The notes under the pieces are model-generated. The model saw only the letters and a list, made by a program, of their open reading frames with translations. It made no database searches and was not told the DNA's origin. Below are positions 21,041 through 36,514 of a stretch of 64,000 nucleotides of DNA, one piece after another. This DNA comes from Escherichia coli (GTDB lineage Bacteria; Pseudomonadota; Gammaproteobacteria; Enterobacterales; Enterobacteriaceae): NCBI RefSeq assembly GCF_003334815.1, contig NZ_QOWO01000017.1; one strand, 5' to 3'. Position numbers and translations under genes: made by a program. The stretch's first letter is position 1. Each line of letters starts with the position of its first letter.

Positions 21041-23293
21041 TTATCCGTTCTGGACTTCACCCGCTAACCAACGCGCCGCAGCAATAACCCCCTGCCCCAG
21101 AGACAAACCGCCATCACCCGCCGGTAAACTCTGTGGAAAGAGCAATGTGAAATCAGCGAGATAATGCGCCAGACGTGCACGCAGCAAACGGTTATGAATA
21201 ACCCCGCCGCTAAATACCAGCGTAGTGATACCACGCATCGTGGCCTGCTCACGCATCAACGCGGCAAAACCCTGCGCCAGCGCATCATGAAACGCCCACG
21301 CGCGTTGATTAACCGGTGCCTGCCAGTTCAGCCACTGCTGCCAGAAAGTGGCGAGATCCAGTTGATTGTCCACCCGCGGCATTGTCACCGGATGCGTCAC
21401 TCCGTGGCATGAGGCTGCGAGCGCCTCCAGAGCACAAGCCGCTTCACCTTCATAACTTAACGTGGCTGGCGCACAGCCCAGTGCCGCCGCCACTGCATCG
21501 AAAAAACGCCCACACGATGACGCCAGCGGCGCGTTAATTCCACGCTCAATGGCCCGCGCCAGCACGCTCCAGTTTTGCTGTTGCACACTTGCTGTTTCAG
21601 AGTAATTCTGCCACTCCGGCACAAAGCGCAGGCACTGCGCCAGCAGGTTTCGCCACGGCTGCTTCGCTGCCAAATCGCCACCCGGAAGCGCCACTGCAGG
21701 CAAGCCGCCCAGGTGCTCACATTCGCGATAGTTCACCCGCAGGCACTCGCCGCCCCACAAAGCGCCGTTCTCCCCCATACCGATACCGTCGAGCGTCAAA
21801 GCAATGACATCACCGCCATCCAGCGGCCACTGATGCTCTGCCAGACACGCCGCTGCATGGGCATGATGATGCAGTACCGTTTGCGTCGGCAGATTCATTT
21901 CACGCGCCCACTGGCTGGAGACATAGCCCGGATGCGCGTCATGCACAACGTATTGCGGGGTAAAATCGTAGATGTTTTGCATCAGGCGTAACGCTTCGCG
22001 CCACTGCATCTGGATGCCATCGTCACTTAAATCGCCCAGATGCTGACTCAACACCGCTTGTTCACCGCGCACCAGGCAGAAGGTATTTTTCAGATCCGCG
22101 CCGAGACACAGCACAGGCGGAACATTTTTAAAGCCCGGAGGCAAAGCCAGCGCATCCGGCACATACCCCCGCGAACGGCGCAGCATTTCGCCGCTTTCGC
22201 GCACCACCGAATCATCCATCCGCTGCACGATGTCGCGGTTATGTATCAAGAATCCGTCGGCAATGCCCTGCAAATCCGCCAGCGCCTGTTCGTTGCTGAT
22301 AGCTGGTGGTTTACCGCTCAGGTTGCCGGAGGTCATCACCAGCGGGCATTGCAGTTCCTGTAACAGCAAATGCTGGAGCGGGTTCGCAGGCAACATTACC
22401 CCGACTTCGTTAAGGTCAGGGGCGATATCATCACAAAGCTCAGGAACGTATTTTTTATCCACCAGCACAATCGGCGCGGCGGGCGTGGTAAGCAACTGGC
22501 GCGCAGCGTCTGGTAAACCGTCAGCCACTGGCAACATGACCGCCAGCGGTTTCGCCGGGCGATGTTTGCGCGCCCGAAGTGTCGCCACCGCGTTACTGTT
22601 ACGTGCATCGCAGGCAAGATGAAATCCGCCAATCCCTTTGATGGCGACAATTTTGCCCATTTTTAACTGTGCGATAGCTGCCTGTAATGCCGCCTCTTGT
22701 TCCGCATGTTCACCATGACTTACCCATTCAAGATGCGGGCCACACTCCGGGCAGGCCACCGGCTGGGCGTGGAAGCGACGATCGAGCGGGTCACGGTACT
22801 CTTTGTCACAGGCCGGACATAGCGGAAACGCCGCCATCACGGTAAACGGGCGGTCGTAAGGCATGGCGCGAATAATGGTGAAACGCGGGCCGCAGTGGGT
22901 ACAGTTGATAAACGGATAACGATAACGCCGTTCGCCTGGGGTATTCATTTCGGCAAGGCAAGCAGGGCAAGTAGCGGCATCGGGAACAATTTGCGTATTC
23001 ATGGTGCCGCCTGTGCTCTGGCGTATAGTGAACTCGGTGGGCAGTTGTGACCAGATAAACGGCTCACGCTCGACGCTATCAATACGCGCCAGCGGCGGGC
23101 AGTGCTGATACAATTGAACAAGAAACGTTTCCGGGTCTTCCCGCAGCCGGACTTCTACGCCATCGCCGTCATTACAGACATCGCCGTGAAGATTTAATTG
23201 CTGTGCCAGCTGCCAGACAAACGGACGAAAACCGACGCCCTGCACTTTGCCACGAATACGCAGTTGGACACCGCAAGATGTGTTTTTTGCCAT
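21041..23293 (-). CDS. hypF: [NiFe]-hydrogenase maturation carbamoyltransferase HypF
   Basis: Acylphosphatase domain, two CxxC zinc-finger pairs, YrdC-like and Kae1-like domains; start set at [10 protein letters not shown] (ORF track extends 24 codons upstream). Confidence 0.93.
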
Positions 23294-23445
23294 TGAGTTA
23301 TTCCCGCCATCATGAATTGCGTAACCCGCCCTGCCGGACACGACAGCGTCGCATCCGGCAGTCACAGGTCGGCGATACCGCCCGCTCCGTATTCTACGAA
23401 TATTTCCGGGAATTCCTTTGATGCCAGAACAGTTCTGTAAGATTT

Positions 23446-23973
23446 TTAGAACATCAGCGCCGTACGGCGGCGTTTTTCTGCGCTCAGTTGTTCAAGTTTA
23501 TTACGATCGACACAAATCAGCGCATGAGTCGGGCAAGCCGCCATACACGCCGGGCCGTCTTCACGATGGTTGCACAGGTCGCATTTATTGGCTTCGGCTT
23601 TGTCAGCCCGTACATTCAGACCCGCGCCGCTGTTGCGGATCACCGGACGTACCACCACTTCCATCGCACCATACGGGCAAGCCACAACGCAGGTTTTGCA
23701 ACCAATGCAACGTTCCTGCATCACATGAACAAACCCTTTATCACGGCTGATAGCACCATTCGGGCAGACGTTAGCGCACGGTGCATCTTCACACTGACGG
23801 CAAACTGTCGCCGTGGAAATGTTCACACCTTTAATGACATGGATACGCGGTAAAAAAGTTTCCGGGGTCAGCGATGCACAGTCCTGATTTTCCTGATGAG
23901 AAACCACGCACGCTACTTCACAGGTACGGCAACCAATACATTTACTCGCGTCAGCAATGATGAAACGGTTCAT
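23446..23973 (-). CDS. hydN: 4Fe-4S ferredoxin-type electron transport protein HydN
   Basis: Multiple CxxCxxCxxxCP clusters; start set at MNRFIIADA. Confidence 0.92.
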
Positions 23974-24121
23974 CAAATTCTCCAGCAATGACAGTTAATG
24001 CGCCGATACATTCACAAATCATGCCAGTTTTTAATTTACTGTTATTTAAGGAAATTAATTTCTGTAATGCAGGAAAAACGATGTCATCGACACTAGTGAC
24101 GATGACATGTGATGACAATGT

Positions 24122-25135
24122 TTATCGCGAAGGAGCAATGAGTGAGTCGCGGCGGATCAGTTTTCCGCTGAAGGTTTTCGGCGGTGAGAAATCCCCGCCA
24201 TCGAGCATAAAAATCAGCCGTCCAATAATTTCCTGAATCATCTCAGTCACCGGAATTTTTACGCTGGAGAGCGCCGGAACGGTGTAGGGGGCAATAGCGA
24301 TATCATCGAATCCGATAACTGACACCTGCTCTGGCACCGCTACGCCGCGCTCGTGTAACGCTTTCATCGCACCTATCGCCATATCGTCGTTACTGGCAAC
24401 TAACGCGCTAAATTTAGCCCCACGTTCGAGCAACATTTCTACCCCTTCGGCCCCGCTGGCAGGCGTCCATTTACCGTTAGCGATAAGTTTTTCATTGAGC
24501 GCAATACCATGCTGCGCCAGCGCGTCTTTATACCCGGCAAGACGTTCAATGCTGGTGGGGGAATCCATCGAGCCGGTAAGGAAAGCAATCTCCTGATGCC
24601 CGGCGTTTATCAACTCTGCCACGGCGTTAAAACTGGTCTGTTTATGATCGCACCAGACGCTATGGCTGCTGTTTTTGCGCAGGCGGCGATTAAGCACCAT
24701 TATCGGCTGACTGTGCGCGTCAATGATGTCATCGATCTCATCCACGCTTAAAAAACGCGGGTAAATCATGATCGCGTCGCAGCGCAGATCCAGCAGATAC
24801 TGAATCGCCTGGCGCTCTTCTTCTGCGCTGTGTTTACCATCTGCCAATAGCAACTGCCGCCCTTTCTCTTCCGCCATTCGCGCGGCATGAAAGAGTAATT
24901 CACTAAAATAAATGCCGTGGTAAAGCGTGTTGGTCACTACCAGCCCCAGCGTCTGAGTACTCTTCGCCGACAGATTGCGCGCCAGCAAGTTTGGACGGTA
25001 ACCGCTCTCTTCTACCGCCTGAAACACGCGATCTTTAGTCTCCTGGCTGACGTAGCCATTACCTGAAAGCACGCGGGAAACGGTCGCTTTTGAAACCCCG
25101 GCGCGCTTCGCCACTTCCAGCATCGTCGTCATCAT
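24122..25135 (-). CDS. ascG: LacI/GalR-family repressor of the asc operon
   Basis: N-terminal HTH MTTMLEVAKRAGVSKATVSRVL and periplasmic-binding-like domain; start set at the internal Met. Confidence 0.9.
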   Translation of the reverse strand: MMTTMLEVAKRAGVSKATVSRVLSGNGYVSQETKDRVFQAVEESGYRPNLLARNLSAKSTQTLGLVVTNTLYHGIYFSELLFHAARMAEEKGRQLLLADGKHSAEEERQAIQYLLDLRCDAIMIYPRFLSVDEIDDIIDAHSQPIMVLNRRLRKNSSHSVWCDHKQTSFNAVAELINAGHQEIAFLTGSMDSPTSIERLAGYKDALAQHGIALNEKLIANGKWTPASGAEGVEMLLERGAKFSALVASNDDMAIGAMKALHERGVAVPEQVSVIGFDDIAIAPYTVPALSSVKIPVTEMIQEIIGRLIFMLDGGDFSPPKTFSGKLIRRDSLIAPSR

Positions 25136-25391
25136 TTTCATCCCTTTACACGCAATCAACGCAGTGTACTGCACCGTTTGCCGATTGTCCTTGCACAATC
25201 GGCGGGAAAAATATTCAGGTGACCGGTTTCACAAATATAAAAAATGAACAATTCACTCTCTTGCTTATTTAGTGACAACTATTCATGATTTTGTGAAACC
25301 GGTTTCTTAATTCCGTTTCAGCATCGGCATTTTTCCGTCACGTCGACTGATAACAACTACATCTACCCTACTGATAACAGGATAAAATCCG

Positions 25392-30629: not shown

Positions 30630-32339
30630 TTATTTCAGCGGCGAGTTTTTACGCTCAATGCTGTAACGCTCGAGTTCTTTGTACGGCACCACTTTGCTCT
30701 TCTTCTTACGCACATCGACCACGGTCATGCGGTCGGTACAGGAGTAGCAAGGGTCGAGGCTACCGATAATCAGCGGCGCATCGGAAACGGTGTTGCCGCG
30801 CAGCATGTAGCGCAGGGTCGGCCAGTTCGCGTAGGTCGCGGCACGGCAGCGCCAGCGGTACAGCTTCTGGTTGTCGCCGGTCATGCTCCAGTGGATATCA
30901 TCGCCGCGCGGCGCTTCGGCAAAGCCCAGCGCAAAGCGGTGCGGAATGTAGGTAAAGCCTTCCACCATCAGTGGGCCACCCGGCAGGTTATCCAGACCGT
31001 AGTCGATCATGTTCAGCGCGGTATAGACTTCGTTGATACGCACTTTCAGACGGGAAATAACGTCGCAGCCCTGCTCGCTGTGGACTTCCATTGGCAGCAG
31101 GCCATAGCCGACAAACGGGTGATCGGCGCGGGTATCACGGGCGTGACCGCTGGCACGGACCATCGGGCCGACGTTACTGAAGTCGCGAGCGATTTCCGGG
31201 TCCAGACGACCAATGCCGACAGTGCGCTGTTCCATGTTCGGAGTGCTCAGCAGCACATCCACCAGCTCCTGCACTTCACGACGCATCTGTTGTGCCAGCT
31301 GGCGGGTCTGGATCATGTCGTCTTTCAGCAGATCGCGACGAATCCCGCCGATCAAGTTCAGGCCGTAGGTTTTACGCGCACCGGTAAGGATCTCTGCCAT
31401 TTTCATGGAGGTTTCACGCACGCGGAAGAACTGCATAAAGCCGGAGTCGAAGCCGGTAAAGTGACAGGCCAGGCCAAGGTTGAGCAGATGCGAGTGCAAG
31501 CGTTCTACCTCCAGCAGAATGGCGCGGATCATCTGCGCACGTTCTGGCACCTGAATACCCATCGCGTTTTCCACCGACGTGGTGTAGGCGGTGCTGTGGG
31601 CAAAGCCGCAGATCCCGCACACACGGTCAGAGAGGAAGGTCACTTCGTTATAACCCATACGGGTTTCCGCCAGTTTTTCCATGCCGCGATGGACGTAGAA
31701 CAGACGGTAGTCGGCGTCGATAATGTTTTCGCCATCGACGAACAGACGGAAGTGGCCCGGTTCATCAGAAGTGACGTGCAGCGGACCAATCGGCACGACG
31801 TTGTTTTTCTTGTCGCCCAGTTCGTTGATGAACTCGTAGGTTTCAGCATCGGTGGTCGGTGCCGGACGCTGACGATAATCCATGCTGTCTTTACGCAGCG
31901 GATAAAGTTCATCCGGCCAGTCATCCGGCAGCACCAGACGACGTTCATCCGGCAGACCAACCGGAATCAAACCGTACATATCGCGCACTTCACGCTCGCC
32001 CCACACCGCCGCCGGAACGCGCGGCGTCACGGACGGATATTCCGGTTTGTTGGCGTCAACTTCGACGCGAACCGTAATCCAACACTTAGTGCCCTTCTCC
32101 ATCGACAGCACGTAGTAAACGGCGTAATGACCATTCAGTTTGCGTTCGTCGTTACCAAACAGCACCGACAGCCAGCCACCCTGTTTGTAGTAAAGAAACT
32201 CCACCACTTCCGGCAGGTAGTTCACCTTTACGGTGACAGTCAGCTGATCTTTGGTCTGCCAGGCGTGGTCCAGCACGACGCCCGGAAATGCCTCATTCAG
32301 CGCGGCGAGATAATGTTGACCTAATTTTTCTTCAGACAT
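30630..32339 (-). CDS. hycE: Hydrogenase 3 [NiFe] large subunit
   Basis: NuoC-NuoD-like fusion; C-terminal DPCxSCxDR nickel-binding motif; start set at MSEEKLGQHY. Confidence 0.95.
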   Translation of the reverse strand: MSEEKLGQHYLAALNEAFPGVVLDHAWQTKDQLTVTVKVNYLPEVVEFLYYKQGGWLSVLFGNDERKLNGHYAVYYVLSMEKGTKCWITVRVEVDANKPEYPSVTPRVPAAVWGEREVRDMYGLIPVGLPDERRLVLPDDWPDELYPLRKDSMDYRQRPAPTTDAETYEFINELGDKKNNVVPIGPLHVTSDEPGHFRLFVDGENIIDADYRLFYVHRGMEKLAETRMGYNEVTFLSDRVCGICGFAHSTAYTTSVENAMGIQVPERAQMIRAILLEVERLHSHLLNLGLACHFTGFDSGFMQFFRVRETSMKMAEILTGARKTYGLNLIGGIRRDLLKDDMIQTRQLAQQMRREVQELVDVLLSTPNMEQRTVGIGRLDPEIARDFSNVGPMVRASGHARDTRADHPFVGYGLLPMEVHSEQGCDVISRLKVRINEVYTALNMIDYGLDNLPGGPLMVEGFTYIPHRFALGFAEAPRGDDIHWSMTGDNQKLYRWRCRAATYANWPTLRYMLRGNTVSDAPLIIGSLDPCYSCTDRMTVVDVRKKKSKVVPYKELERYSIERKNSPLK

Positions 32340-33282: not shown

Positions 33283-35109
33283 TCAGGCTCCTCGTGAAAC
33301 AATAATCACCACCAGTACCGCCAGTTCAACCAGCGCCATCCGGCGGAACAGCAACGCACTCCCCTCGCACTGCCAGCCCGGCACCAGAGACACCGGATTC
33401 AGCCATTTGCGTAGTTTCAGCACCGGCGCAAACGCCTGTTTCACCGGCATGGCAAAACCGTGAGCGGTAATCACCATTGATTTTTCGTGGTCGTAACCGC
33501 ACACCCAGGCCGCACCGCGGGAACGCGATGGCAAACGATCGCCTTTGCAAATCGCCATAATGATGAATGGCAGCAGCGGGCAGGCAATCAGCAGCAACGT
33601 GATCATCGGTTGAGAAACGGTGGTGTTAGCAGGCTCCAGCGGCAGAGGTACAGCAGCAGAGAGCATCGGCAGTAGCCACGGCGCAGCAACACCGCCAATT
33701 ACGCAGCAAATCGCCAGTGCCACTACGCTTACGCTCATCAGGAGCGGCGCACAGGTGGCGTTTTCGGCTTCTTTGGTGCGCGGCGCGCCGAGGAACGTGA
33801 CGCCATAGACTTTCGCCATACACATCACCGCCAGCGCACCGGTAATTGCCAGCCCCACAGCGAGCAGCGGCCCCAGCAGACGGGCAACAAACGCGCCACT
33901 ATTGCTCAGTTTGAAAAATGATTGATAGATAACCCATTCCCCGGCAAAACCATTCAGCGGCGGCAGCGCAGCCATTGCCATCAGCCCGACTAACATGGCG
34001 ATGGAGATAACCGGCATTTTCTTGCCAATACCACCGAGTTTTTCGATATCGCGATGACCGGTACGGAACCAGACGCTCCCCGCCCCGAGGAACAGTACGC
34101 TTTTGAACAGGCTATGGTTAAGCAGATGGTACAGACCACCGACCAGGCCAAGAGCAATCAGCGCCGGTTGTTCGAGCGCGATACCCGTTACGCCAGCGCC
34201 CAGCCCCAGCAGGATGATGCCGATATTTTCCAGGGTGTGGTAAGCCAGCAGGCGCTGGATGTTGTGCTCCACCAGCGCATACAGACCACCGACAAACGCG
34301 GTGATCATGCCGAGCACCAGCAGCGCGATCCCCCACCACAGCGGTGCATTACCGCCCAGCAGTGACAGGGTTAAAATGCCCAGCAGGCCAATTTTCATGA
34401 CTACCGTAGAAAACAACGCGGCAGCTGGCGCAGAGGCGTTCGCATGTGCCTGCGGCACCCAGCCGTGCAGCGGAATAATCCCGGCCAGCAGGCCAAAGCC
34501 AATCACTCCGAGCAGCCAGATATCGGAACCGAGCGGCAGCTGTTGCATACGCATATCCAGCAGGCGCAGATCCAGCGTGCCGTAACGCTGCCACAGCAGC
34601 CAGCAAGCAATCGCCAGCAGCAGAGTGCCAAGACGCCCCAGCGCAAACCACAGTTTGCCCTCTTTGCTGTTGCTGGTGAGGAACACCGCGCACAGGGCCA
34701 TGATTTCGGCCATTACCACGAACATGCCGAGGTTGCTGGCAATGACGGCGCAGACGGCGGCAGCCATCAACATATTGATCTGCAAGCCGTTGCACTTCAC
34801 CTGCGCGTGGCGATGCCAGTCAATGTTGTAGAGGCTGACAAACAGACCGCACAGACCGAGCGTAATCAGCCAAATCGCGTTAAGCGGAGAGATTTGCACA
34901 TCGTAGCTTACCAGCGACAGCGCACCGCTCACGCCAACCGCGCCAGTCAGTACAGTGAAGCCCGCGGCTGCCGTATACAGACTACCAACCGCGCCGCCAA
35001 TTCCAGCTATCCAGCCACTTAACGCTTTTTGAAAAGAAAAGAGAAATGCCAGAACAGCGGCGGCGACAAACCACGCCACGCCGCTATTGATCAGGGAAAT
35101 TGCGCTCAT
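33283..35109 (-). CDS. hycC: Formate hydrogenlyase membrane subunit (NuoL/antiporter-like)
   Basis: 608 aa polytopic membrane protein recognised as HycC. Confidence 0.93.
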   Translation of the reverse strand: MSAISLINSGVAWFVAAAVLAFLFSFQKALSGWIAGIGGAVGSLYTAAAGFTVLTGAVGVSGALSLVSYDVQISPLNAIWLITLGLCGLFVSLYNIDWHRHAQVKCNGLQINMLMAAAVCAVIASNLGMFVVMAEIMALCAVFLTSNSKEGKLWFALGRLGTLLLAIACWLLWQRYGTLDLRLLDMRMQQLPLGSDIWLLGVIGFGLLAGIIPLHGWVPQAHANASAPAAALFSTVVMKIGLLGILTLSLLGGNAPLWWGIALLVLGMITAFVGGLYALVEHNIQRLLAYHTLENIGIILLGLGAGVTGIALEQPALIALGLVGGLYHLLNHSLFKSVLFLGAGSVWFRTGHRDIEKLGGIGKKMPVISIAMLVGLMAMAALPPLNGFAGEWVIYQSFFKLSNSGAFVARLLGPLLAVGLAITGALAVMCMAKVYGVTFLGAPRTKEAENATCAPLLMSVSVVALAICCVIGGVAAPWLLPMLSAAVPLPLEPANTTVSQPMITLLLIACPLLPFIIMAICKGDRLPSRSRGAAWVCGYDHEKSMVITAHGFAMPVKQAFAPVLKLRKWLNPVSLVPGWQCEGSALLFRRMALVELAVLVVIIVSRGA

Positions 35110-35717: not shown

Positions 35718-35841
35718 CAGGCATTCCTCAGGTGATTGTCATTTTTGACGAAAACATGCCGATGAAATGTCATTTTCGACACTCATCGACACGCCCATCC
35801 CCAAACAGGCGTAACGCCTGCAAAACGGGCAAAGCCTCAGC

Positions 35842-36303
35842 TCATGCTGCCGGGCTTTGTCCCTTTACCAGTTGGCTTAAATTCACCGGCACATTGTTTT
35901 CAATAGCGGTGTATAAGCTGTCGTAAACGCCAGCGATTTTTTCGAGATAGTGTTCCAGAACCTGTTCGCGATCGCGGATGTTGACCTTGCCATCAATCAT
36001 GCCGTCAATGCTCAGTTGCGCCTGCGCAATCCGCTGTTTGTCTTCGCCATCTTTTGTTTCGACGTAATACTCGATGGTGTGGCTGTTAAAGCCATCCGCC
36101 AGGGTGACGTAAATGCGAAAATGTTCAAAAAGGACGAAACAGAGTTCTTTGTCCGGCGCGCAGCTCATGGCGTGATGCAGGCGCGCTTTCGATAACGTGA
36201 TCCCCTGAACCAGCGAATTGCAGTAGATGTGCCACTGGTCCTGTAGGCGACGATGCCGCTGTGCGATGTAATCGGCTTTCTCGCTTATTTCCCAAATAGT
36301 CAT
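35842..36303 (-). CDS. hycA: Formate hydrogenlyase regulatory protein HycA
   Basis: 153 aa translation recognised as HycA. Confidence 0.92.
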   Translation of the reverse strand: MTIWEISEKADYIAQRHRRLQDQWHIYCNSLVQGITLSKARLHHAMSCAPDKELCFVLFEHFRIYVTLADGFNSHTIEYYVETKDGEDKQRIAQAQLSIDGMIDGKVNIRDREQVLEHYLEKIAGVYDSLYTAIENNVPVNLSQLVKGQSPAA

Positions 36304-36338: not shown

Positions 36339-36358
36339 AAGCATTTTTTGTGCCAACT
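36339..36358 (-). promoter_or_regulatory. Sigma-54 promoter of the hyc operon
   Basis: Minus strand reads TTGGCACAAAAAATGCTT with GG-N10-GC spacing. Confidence 0.75.
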
Positions 36359-36394: not shown

Positions 36395-36445
36395 AGATGA
36401 ATTTCGTCGCCGTGTCGACGTGTCATTTCGACATCATCGACATTA
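36395..36445. promoter_or_regulatory. Probable FhlA upstream activating region shared by hyc and hyp
   Basis: Clustered GTCGAC/CATCGACA repeats (tgtcgacgtgtcatttcgacatcatcgaca) midway between the divergent sigma-54 promoters. Confidence 0.55.
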
Positions 36446-36466: not shown

Positions 36467-36483
36467 ACTGGCACAATTATTGC
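36467..36483 (+). promoter_or_regulatory. Sigma-54 promoter of the hyp operon
   Basis: CTGGCACAATTATTGCT with GG-N10-GC spacing, about 35 bp upstream of hypA. Confidence 0.75.
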
Positions 36484-36514
36484 TTGTAGCTGGCAATAGT
36501 TAATGGGAGGCGAT

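Follow-up and report, generated by a model that had tools for sequence, protein, structure and literature searches.

A conserved palindrome upstream of hydN-hypF in Escherichia coli as a proposed FhlA enhancer of a weak sigma-54 promoter

HypF is required for the maturation of all [NiFe] hydrogenases and HydN is a partner of formate dehydrogenase H. The spacer between ascG and hydN carries a long palindrome, and the question raised by this locus is whether the palindrome is the site from which the hydN-hypF operon is activated and, if so, by which protein. We analysed a window of 64,000 nucleotides (64 kb) of E. coli DNA around the locus, for which an earlier note, made from the sequence alone, had put forward the palindrome as a candidate FhlA activator site for hydN-hypF. 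The proposal is supported by conservation that is tied to hydN, by a dyad common to the fdhF and hycA-hycB control regions, by a spacing in roughly whole helical turns from the -24 element and by the published dependence of the operon on FhlA and sigma-54. We therefore regard the palindrome as very probably the upstream activating sequence (UAS, or enhancer) of the sigma-54 promoter of hydN-hypF, with FhlA as its proposed ligand. Regulation of the operon by FhlA and sigma-54 is already known, reviews assigning hydN-hypF to the FhlA/formate regulon with reference to Maier 1996, and in this respect the finding is correct but ordinary; text searches of the open-access literature found no description of an FhlA site at hydN. 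What such an enhancer would provide is a link between the synthesis of HypF and HydN and the sensing of formate.

The palindrome and its conservation with hydN

The window derives from the E. coli chromosome, its bases 23400-24700 being 100% identical to many complete genomes in which hydN and ascG are annotated; hydN corresponds to 2837578-2838105 in MG1655, which gives a window offset of +2814132. The ascG-hydN spacer of 148 bp (23974-24121) is exactly the range that the earlier note had singled out. The features discussed below are collected in Table 1.

Table 1. Features of the hydN-hypF control region and of the related hyc and hyp control regions (window positions)
Feature	Position	Strand	Basis or remark
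hypF	21041-23365	minus	
hydN	23446-23973	minus	ATG at 23973
Predicted transcription start of hydN	24000	minus	12 nt downstream of the -12 position
Sigma-54 -24/-12 element CTGGCATGATTTGTGAA (TGGCAT-N5-GTGAA)	24011-24027	minus	ChIP-seq OS26, matrices, conserved position; -24 GG at 24025-24024, -12 GA at 24013-24012
IHF-like element TAACAGTAAATTA, directly upstream of -24	24032-24044	minus	same position as AATCARNNNNTTA in other genera
Run of five T, 2 nt past the palindrome	24074-24078	minus	makes the stretch downstream of ascG resemble a terminator
28-bp palindrome, proposed UAS (FhlA enhancer) of hydN-hypF	24081-24108	both	palindrome search, conservation
Half-site ATGTCATCG	24081-24089		
Half-site CGATGACAT	24100-24108		
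Core dyad TCGWCA-N4-TGWCGA	24087-24102	both	common to fdhF, hyfA and hycA-hycB control regions
Additional half-site (TGTCA) lying 4 nt upstream of the palindrome	24113-24117	minus	moderately conserved columns (60-90%)
ascG		minus	stop codon TAA at 24124-24122
hycA-hycB spacer motif cluster	35734-35793	both	contains TGTCGAAAATGACA and TCGTCAAAAATGAC; densest YGWCA window in 64 kb
Sigma-54 promoter flanking the hycA-hypA cluster	36340-36356	minus	
hycA-hypA cluster of YGWCA/TGTCGATGA motifs	36397-36445	both	between divergent hyc and hyp sigma-54 promoters
Sigma-54 promoter flanking the hycA-hypA cluster	36468-36484	plus	

The palindrome (ATGTCATCGACACT/AGTGACGATGACAT) is formed by two arms of 14 nt each, which are 93% complementary with one mismatched pair and a gap of 0, and it reads ATGTCATCGTCA-CTAG-TGTCGATGACAT on the hydN strand. 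The earlier note had described it as two half-sites around nine nucleotides; the palindrome itself stands, but the half-sites lie 10 nt apart. No match to it was obtained in 100 shuffles of the window, even when up to 3 mismatches were allowed. Its core is a dyad that recurs with one mismatch in the control regions of fdhF and hyfA and in the hycA-hycB spacer of E. coli, and the short form CGWCA-N4-TGWCG has one exact copy in the 64-kb window, namely the hydN palindrome; this motif was defined after the sequences had been seen. At the position of the extra half-site on the ascG side, most other genera carry TCGTCA or TCGACA.

The half-site motifs are not confined to this spacer. The 9-mer TCATCGACA has six copies in the window, where 0.57 would be expected, and three of them fall in control regions, at 24084 (hydN), 35783 (hycA-hycB spacer) and 36434 (hycA-hypA spacer), which bears out the earlier observation that motifs of this kind are common to the hydN upstream region and the hycA-hypA intergenic region. 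When the 64 kb were ranked by density of YGWCA in windows of 60 nt, the top three places were taken by the hycA-hycB spacer, the hydN palindrome and the hycA-hypA spacer.

A scan with HydN, using one genome per species, gave 80 enterobacterial loci, of which the 190 nt upstream of hydN were aligned. Across the 81 sequences from about 20 genera, every column of the 11-nt arms TGTCATCGTCA and TG(A/T)CGATGACA shows at least 90% identity, the flanks being only 30-50% identical, and the 4-nt centre varies, with 19 different tetranucleotides among the orthologues. The palindrome was found in 79 of the 80 orthologous loci. In 505,810 bp of hydN loci the short form of the dyad has 80 copies, where about 2 would be expected by chance, and all but one of these lie 100-140 bp before the hydN ATG.

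Species differ in the gene that directly precedes hydN. It is ascG in most genera, E. coli included, and hycI in Salmonella and Cedecea, among others; in E. albertii, E. whittamii and a third Escherichia the place is taken by an ORF without annotation, about 250 aa long (N-terminus MCAFLL...), for which an NCBIfam search gave no match. Whichever of these genes lies upstream (ascG, hycI or, in E. albertii and E. whittamii, the unrelated ORF), the palindrome is kept with hydN. Within E. coli it is single copy, and the 51-bp region containing it is retained in all 5426 complete genomes, whereas the hydN-ascG query (23400-24700) is covered to at least 80% in only 4692 of them, from which it follows that about 730 genomes differ in the ascG part.

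The sigma-54 promoter and the spacing of its proposed enhancer

An enhancer requires a promoter to act on, and here the earlier note had considered the architecture unresolved, having found no convincing sigma-54 element and having set aside TGGCAT-N5-GTGAA for want of the -12 GC. It was correct that GC is missing, GA being present instead, but the rejected element turns out to be the motif of a ChIP-seq peak for sigma-54, OS26, which carries exactly this 17-mer, is assigned to hydN and is marked 'C' in the EcoCyc column of the ChIP-seq table (PMC4591121). In gSELEX, reconstituted sigma-54 holoenzyme selects a fragment within the hydN-ascG spacer. The equivalent site of Salmonella (TGGCACGATTCGTGTATA) has a ChIP-chip signal, and expression of Salmonella hydN-hypF is 13-fold sigma-54 dependent, with FhlA named as the activator. 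A scan of the spacer for sigma-70 promoters returned nothing.

By matrix score the element is weak. When a leave-one-out matrix was derived from the intergenic sigma-54 sites of the ChIP-seq study (PMC4591121), 41 in number without this one, the element reached 10.3 bits; its rank was 16 within the window and 40 among the 42 ChIP sites, none of the others having GA at -12. The 186-site Barrios matrix (from PMC7658346) gives 11.2 bits and again rank 16 in the window. In view of this low rank, the earlier caution about the promoter was fair from sequence alone. A sigma-54 site without the -12 GC can evidently be genuine, and scans that rely only on the consensus will therefore miss such sites. 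From the position of the element, the 5' UTR of hydN would be about 27 nt, and a distance of 27 is listed for hydN in the ChIP-seq table (PMC4591121); the centre of the palindrome lies about 94-95 bp upstream of the predicted start.

On comparison of the orthologues, a -24/-12 element was found at the same place in the 80 loci, with the GG 49-54 bp before the ATG and the canonical -12 GC in 29 of them. The deviations from consensus are distributed in a particular manner: 51 loci have a canonical -24 (TGGCAY) together with TGA or TGT at -12, and the 29 loci with the canonical -12 (TGC) have a deviant -24 (TGGCGC, TGGCGT, TGGCTC or TGGAAC). That none of the 80 species has a hydN promoter canonical in both elements is a mildly new point; likewise, none is deviant in both. 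Scores over the 80 species range from 9.0 to 13.8 bits, as compared to a range of 14.7-18.6 bits at the promoters of hyc and hyp. Such a trade-off between -24 and -12 suggests selection for a weak hydN promoter, in species that are related and not independent of each other, and the promoter seems to have been kept sub-optimal throughout the family.

Between the palindrome and the -24 box lies an AT-rich, IHF-like element. The IHF consensus WATCARNNNNTTR is matched strictly at this fixed offset in 18 of the 80 orthologues and in relaxed form in 16 more; the E. coli version TAACAGTAAATTA deviates from it and is a near-copy of the AT-rich block at the hyc promoter. Hopper and colleagues reportedly demonstrated in 1994 that IHF binds at hyc.

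The dyad centre lies at one of a few discrete distances from the -24 GG. At hydN the distance is 59-62 bp in 30 loci and 69-72 bp in 50, never 63-68 bp, and E. coli belongs to the second class with 70 bp; at fdhF it is 80-82 bp in 82 sequences and 71-72 bp in 6. The classes of about 60, 70 and 80 bp are thus roughly one helical turn apart, the fit being approximate (the step in Klebsiella/Raoultella is 13 bp), and spacing by whole turns is expected because the activator must face the polymerase. Both hydN classes occur inside single genera (Kosakonia and Superficieibacter) as well as in the Klebsiella/Raoultella group.

Promoters served by enhancer-binding proteins, such as glnAp2 with NtrC and nifH with NifA, combine an upstream activating sequence, an IHF bend and a -24/-12 element with sigma-54 in a closed complex. 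The hydN region resembles them in having its activator site roughly 70-100 bp upstream, with an IHF-like site in between, and differs from them in its activator recognition sequence and in a -12 element without the conserved C. The architecture of the hydN promoter can be regarded as resolved: a weak -24/-12 element, in which GA takes the place of the -12 GC, is preceded by an IHF-like site and, near -95, by an FhlA-type enhancer. In such an arrangement, formate-activated FhlA oligomers would bind the dyad-symmetric (T/C)G(T/A)CA pentamer repeats about 95 bp upstream of the start, the AT-rich element just 5' of the -24 box would bend the DNA, and FhlA would then contact the closed complex of RNA polymerase and sigma-54 on TGGCAT-N5-GTGAA and open it through ATP hydrolysis. 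That FhlA and IHF physically occupy precisely these bases we only infer; binding of the hydN element by sigma-54 in vivo has been reported (PMC4591121).

Relation to the FhlA-type sites at fdhF, hyf, hyc and hyp

Among the closest known relatives of the hydN site is the one upstream of fdhF, the classic FhlA target. A metagenome scan with the 5' coding sequence of fdhF yielded 96 distinct upstream regions, 88 of which contain the exact dyad CGWCA-N4-TGWCG with the same T/A wobble (80 with TGACG and 8 with TGTCG). The two sites agree in the core dyad (A/T)CGTCA-N4-TG(A/T)CGA, in the (C/T)G(A/T)CA unit that adjoins it on the 5' side, in the wobble and in the orientation relative to the -24/-12 promoter, and their distances from dyad to GG, 80 bp at fdhF and 70 bp at hydN, differ by one helical turn. 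The hydN site, unlike that of fdhF, is a longer, near-perfect palindrome of 26-28 bp with outer TGTCAT/ATGACA arms, whereas fdhF has an extra downstream TTTTCGTCAG unit and the canonical -12 GC. A minority of the metagenomic fdhF-like loci (L111, L177, L186, L192 and L204) has no N4 dyad. Here a canonical promoter, TGGCAC-N5-TGCAT, is preceded instead by a longer type of palindrome, TTCGTCATGACATTTATGACGAA, in which more distant Enterobacterales may have a variant of the enhancer.

The sites of the hyc and hyp promoters are also related. In common with hydN they have clustered YGWCA pentamers and the motif TGTCGATGA (plus strand: TCATCGACA), and the hycA-hycB spacer has in addition a CGTCA-N4-TGAC dyad. 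At the hyc promoter a near-identical AT-rich, IHF-like block stands beside -24, with the centre of the motif cluster about 68-70 bp from the GG. The hycA-hypA spacer, on the other hand, has no N4-spaced dyad, and it follows that FhlA sites are heterogeneous. In an alignment of seven loci from other genera with E. coli, the hycA-hypA cluster was partly conserved in the 8 genera, and the hycA-hycB spacer (window 35718-35841) was found to contain two blocks, TTTCGTCAAAAATGAC and TGTCGAnnnGTGTCGAAAATGACA, that are invariant in all 8. The cluster in the hycA-hycB spacer is, we presume, the known remote FhlA site serving hyp. The string that the earlier note had quoted from the hycA-hypA spacer lies at 36413-36442, within the range it gave, and the two clear sigma-54 promoters that it had placed on either side are indeed there, both among the three best matrix matches of the window and identical to ChIP-seq sites OS27 and OS28 (PMC4591121). 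With 14.7-18.6 bits the hyc and hyp promoters are strong and canonical sites, in contrast to the 10.6 bits of E. coli hydN.

Further sigma-54-like sequences are present in the same region on the minus strand: GTGGCACATCTACTGCA within hycA (36219-36235; 16.2 bits), which is separated from the hyc promoter by about 120 bp, CTGGCACAACAGATGCG inside the hyc genes (31282-31298; 14.4 bits) and GTGGCGCGTTTGTTGCC (33883-33899), which is the published intragenic sigma-54 site IS31 in hycC. In the main text of the ChIP-seq paper, the coordinates of the first two were not found.

The published FhlA matrix (14 nt, TGWC-RAWRAT-GWCA, from 13 sites; PMC7658346) responds poorly to the palindrome. Its best placement there, CGTCACTAGTGTCG, scores 6.9 bits, compared to 16-17.5 bits for hyc-type sites, and nothing upstream of hydN exceeds 7.0 bits, the score of a match outside the palindrome that ranks only about 200th in the window, where the hycA-hycB spacer comes first and the hycA-hypA spacer second. 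At fdhF the best match, CGTCAAAACTGACG, is in the same register as in the palindrome and reaches only 8.1 bits; since the conserved dyad of fdhF also scores low, the matrix was set aside as a decisive test. According to an attempted reconstruction of the 13 underlying sites, the palindrome does not appear to be among them. The FhlA consensus quoted in a review, CATTTCGTACGAAATG, is absent from the hydN site. We conclude that CGWCA-N4-TGWCG at whole-turn spacing describes the enhancers of fdhF and hydN better than the published 14-nt matrix. As in an upstream activating sequence, FhlA-type motifs are present at hydN in the interval of about 60-120 bp upstream of the promoter, with the qualification that the dyad was defined post hoc and scores low with the published matrix.

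The poor matrix score is also a reason to consider that the palindrome is bound by a different regulator, which could be AscG (the LacI-family neighbour), HyfR or an unidentified protein. The conserved 11-nt arms are unusually long next to hyc-type sites, and HyfR, a paralogue of FhlA, acts at hyf, where the same type of dyad is found. Nevertheless, the dyad is common to fdhF, and its position and phase on the helix with respect to a sigma-54 promoter demand an enhancer-binding protein, FhlA being the one to which the operon is assigned. For AscG in particular, the palindrome is kept in loci that lack ascG upstream of hydN, and the AscG-type operators between ascG and ascF bear no sequence relation to it. 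That the ligand is a regulator different from FhlA is on these grounds improbable, although HyfR may be an additional binder.

Two palindromes of the AscG operator type are present in the ascG-ascF spacer, at about 25218-25233 (GGTGACCGGTTTCACA) and 25293-25308 (TGTGAAACCGGTTTCT); the identity of the hydN palindrome as an AscG operator was rejected, as it has no similarity to the AscG-type operators TGAAACCGGTTTCA. The consensus sequences of CRP, FNR, NarL, NorR and PhoP, compared by eye only, do not fit either.

Hairpin, terminator and chance

Given its location just downstream of ascG, the palindrome might serve that gene primarily as an intrinsic terminator or as a hairpin that stabilises the 3' end. 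It starts 13 nt after the ascG stop codon, is followed by CGTTTTTCC on the transcribed strand, folds as RNA at about -13.7 kcal/mol (centroid structure) and is the sole terminator-like structure between ascG and hydN. Even so, a terminator scan of the spacer makes no call at the palindrome, the z-score of the fold is only -1.85, and the 3'-end mapping supplements of PMC7815308 contain no 3' end of ascG or hydN. The T-run is missing in most genera: only 12 of the 79 orthologues have at least five T among the 9 nt that follow, in columns that are 30-50% conserved, and the U-tract is found mainly in Escherichia and Salmonella. Moreover, the palindrome is retained where ascG is not the upstream gene, so that a hairpin and U-tract conserved together with the upstream gene, by which a Rho-independent terminator would be recognised, are not seen.

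The manner in which the arms vary bears on the same question. Ten of the 11 arm pairs are invariant or nearly so in base identity, without swaps of pair type; the eleventh does vary, with a mismatch in 11 of the 32 distinct sequences. Conservation thus constrains the sequence of the arms and not their pairing, which points to recognition by a protein rather than to a hairpin. As the primary function of the palindrome, termination of ascG is very improbable; a secondary role as a terminator, limited to Escherichia, is possible but rather unlikely.

That the palindrome is a chance feature or a functionless remnant of a repeat element, for which nothing speaks beyond its small size, is hardly credible: it is refuted by its conservation across about 20 genera, besides the absence of matches in the shuffled windows, the lack of an Rfam match and the single copy present in every complete E. 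coli genome, the last of which led us to reject the idea of a repeat element.

With the palindrome taken as the enhancer of hydN-hypF, a more specific reading can be considered, in which enhancer and promoter together form a deliberately tuned variant of the FhlA system, a long dyad being combined with a promoter that the -24/-12 trade-off keeps sub-consensus in all 80 species, and in which the palindrome of Escherichia perhaps also serves as the ascG terminator. We hold this reading to be rather unlikely; if it is true, the long dyad, unlike hyc-type sites, could mean a different stoichiometry of FhlA or a use that is shared with HyfR.
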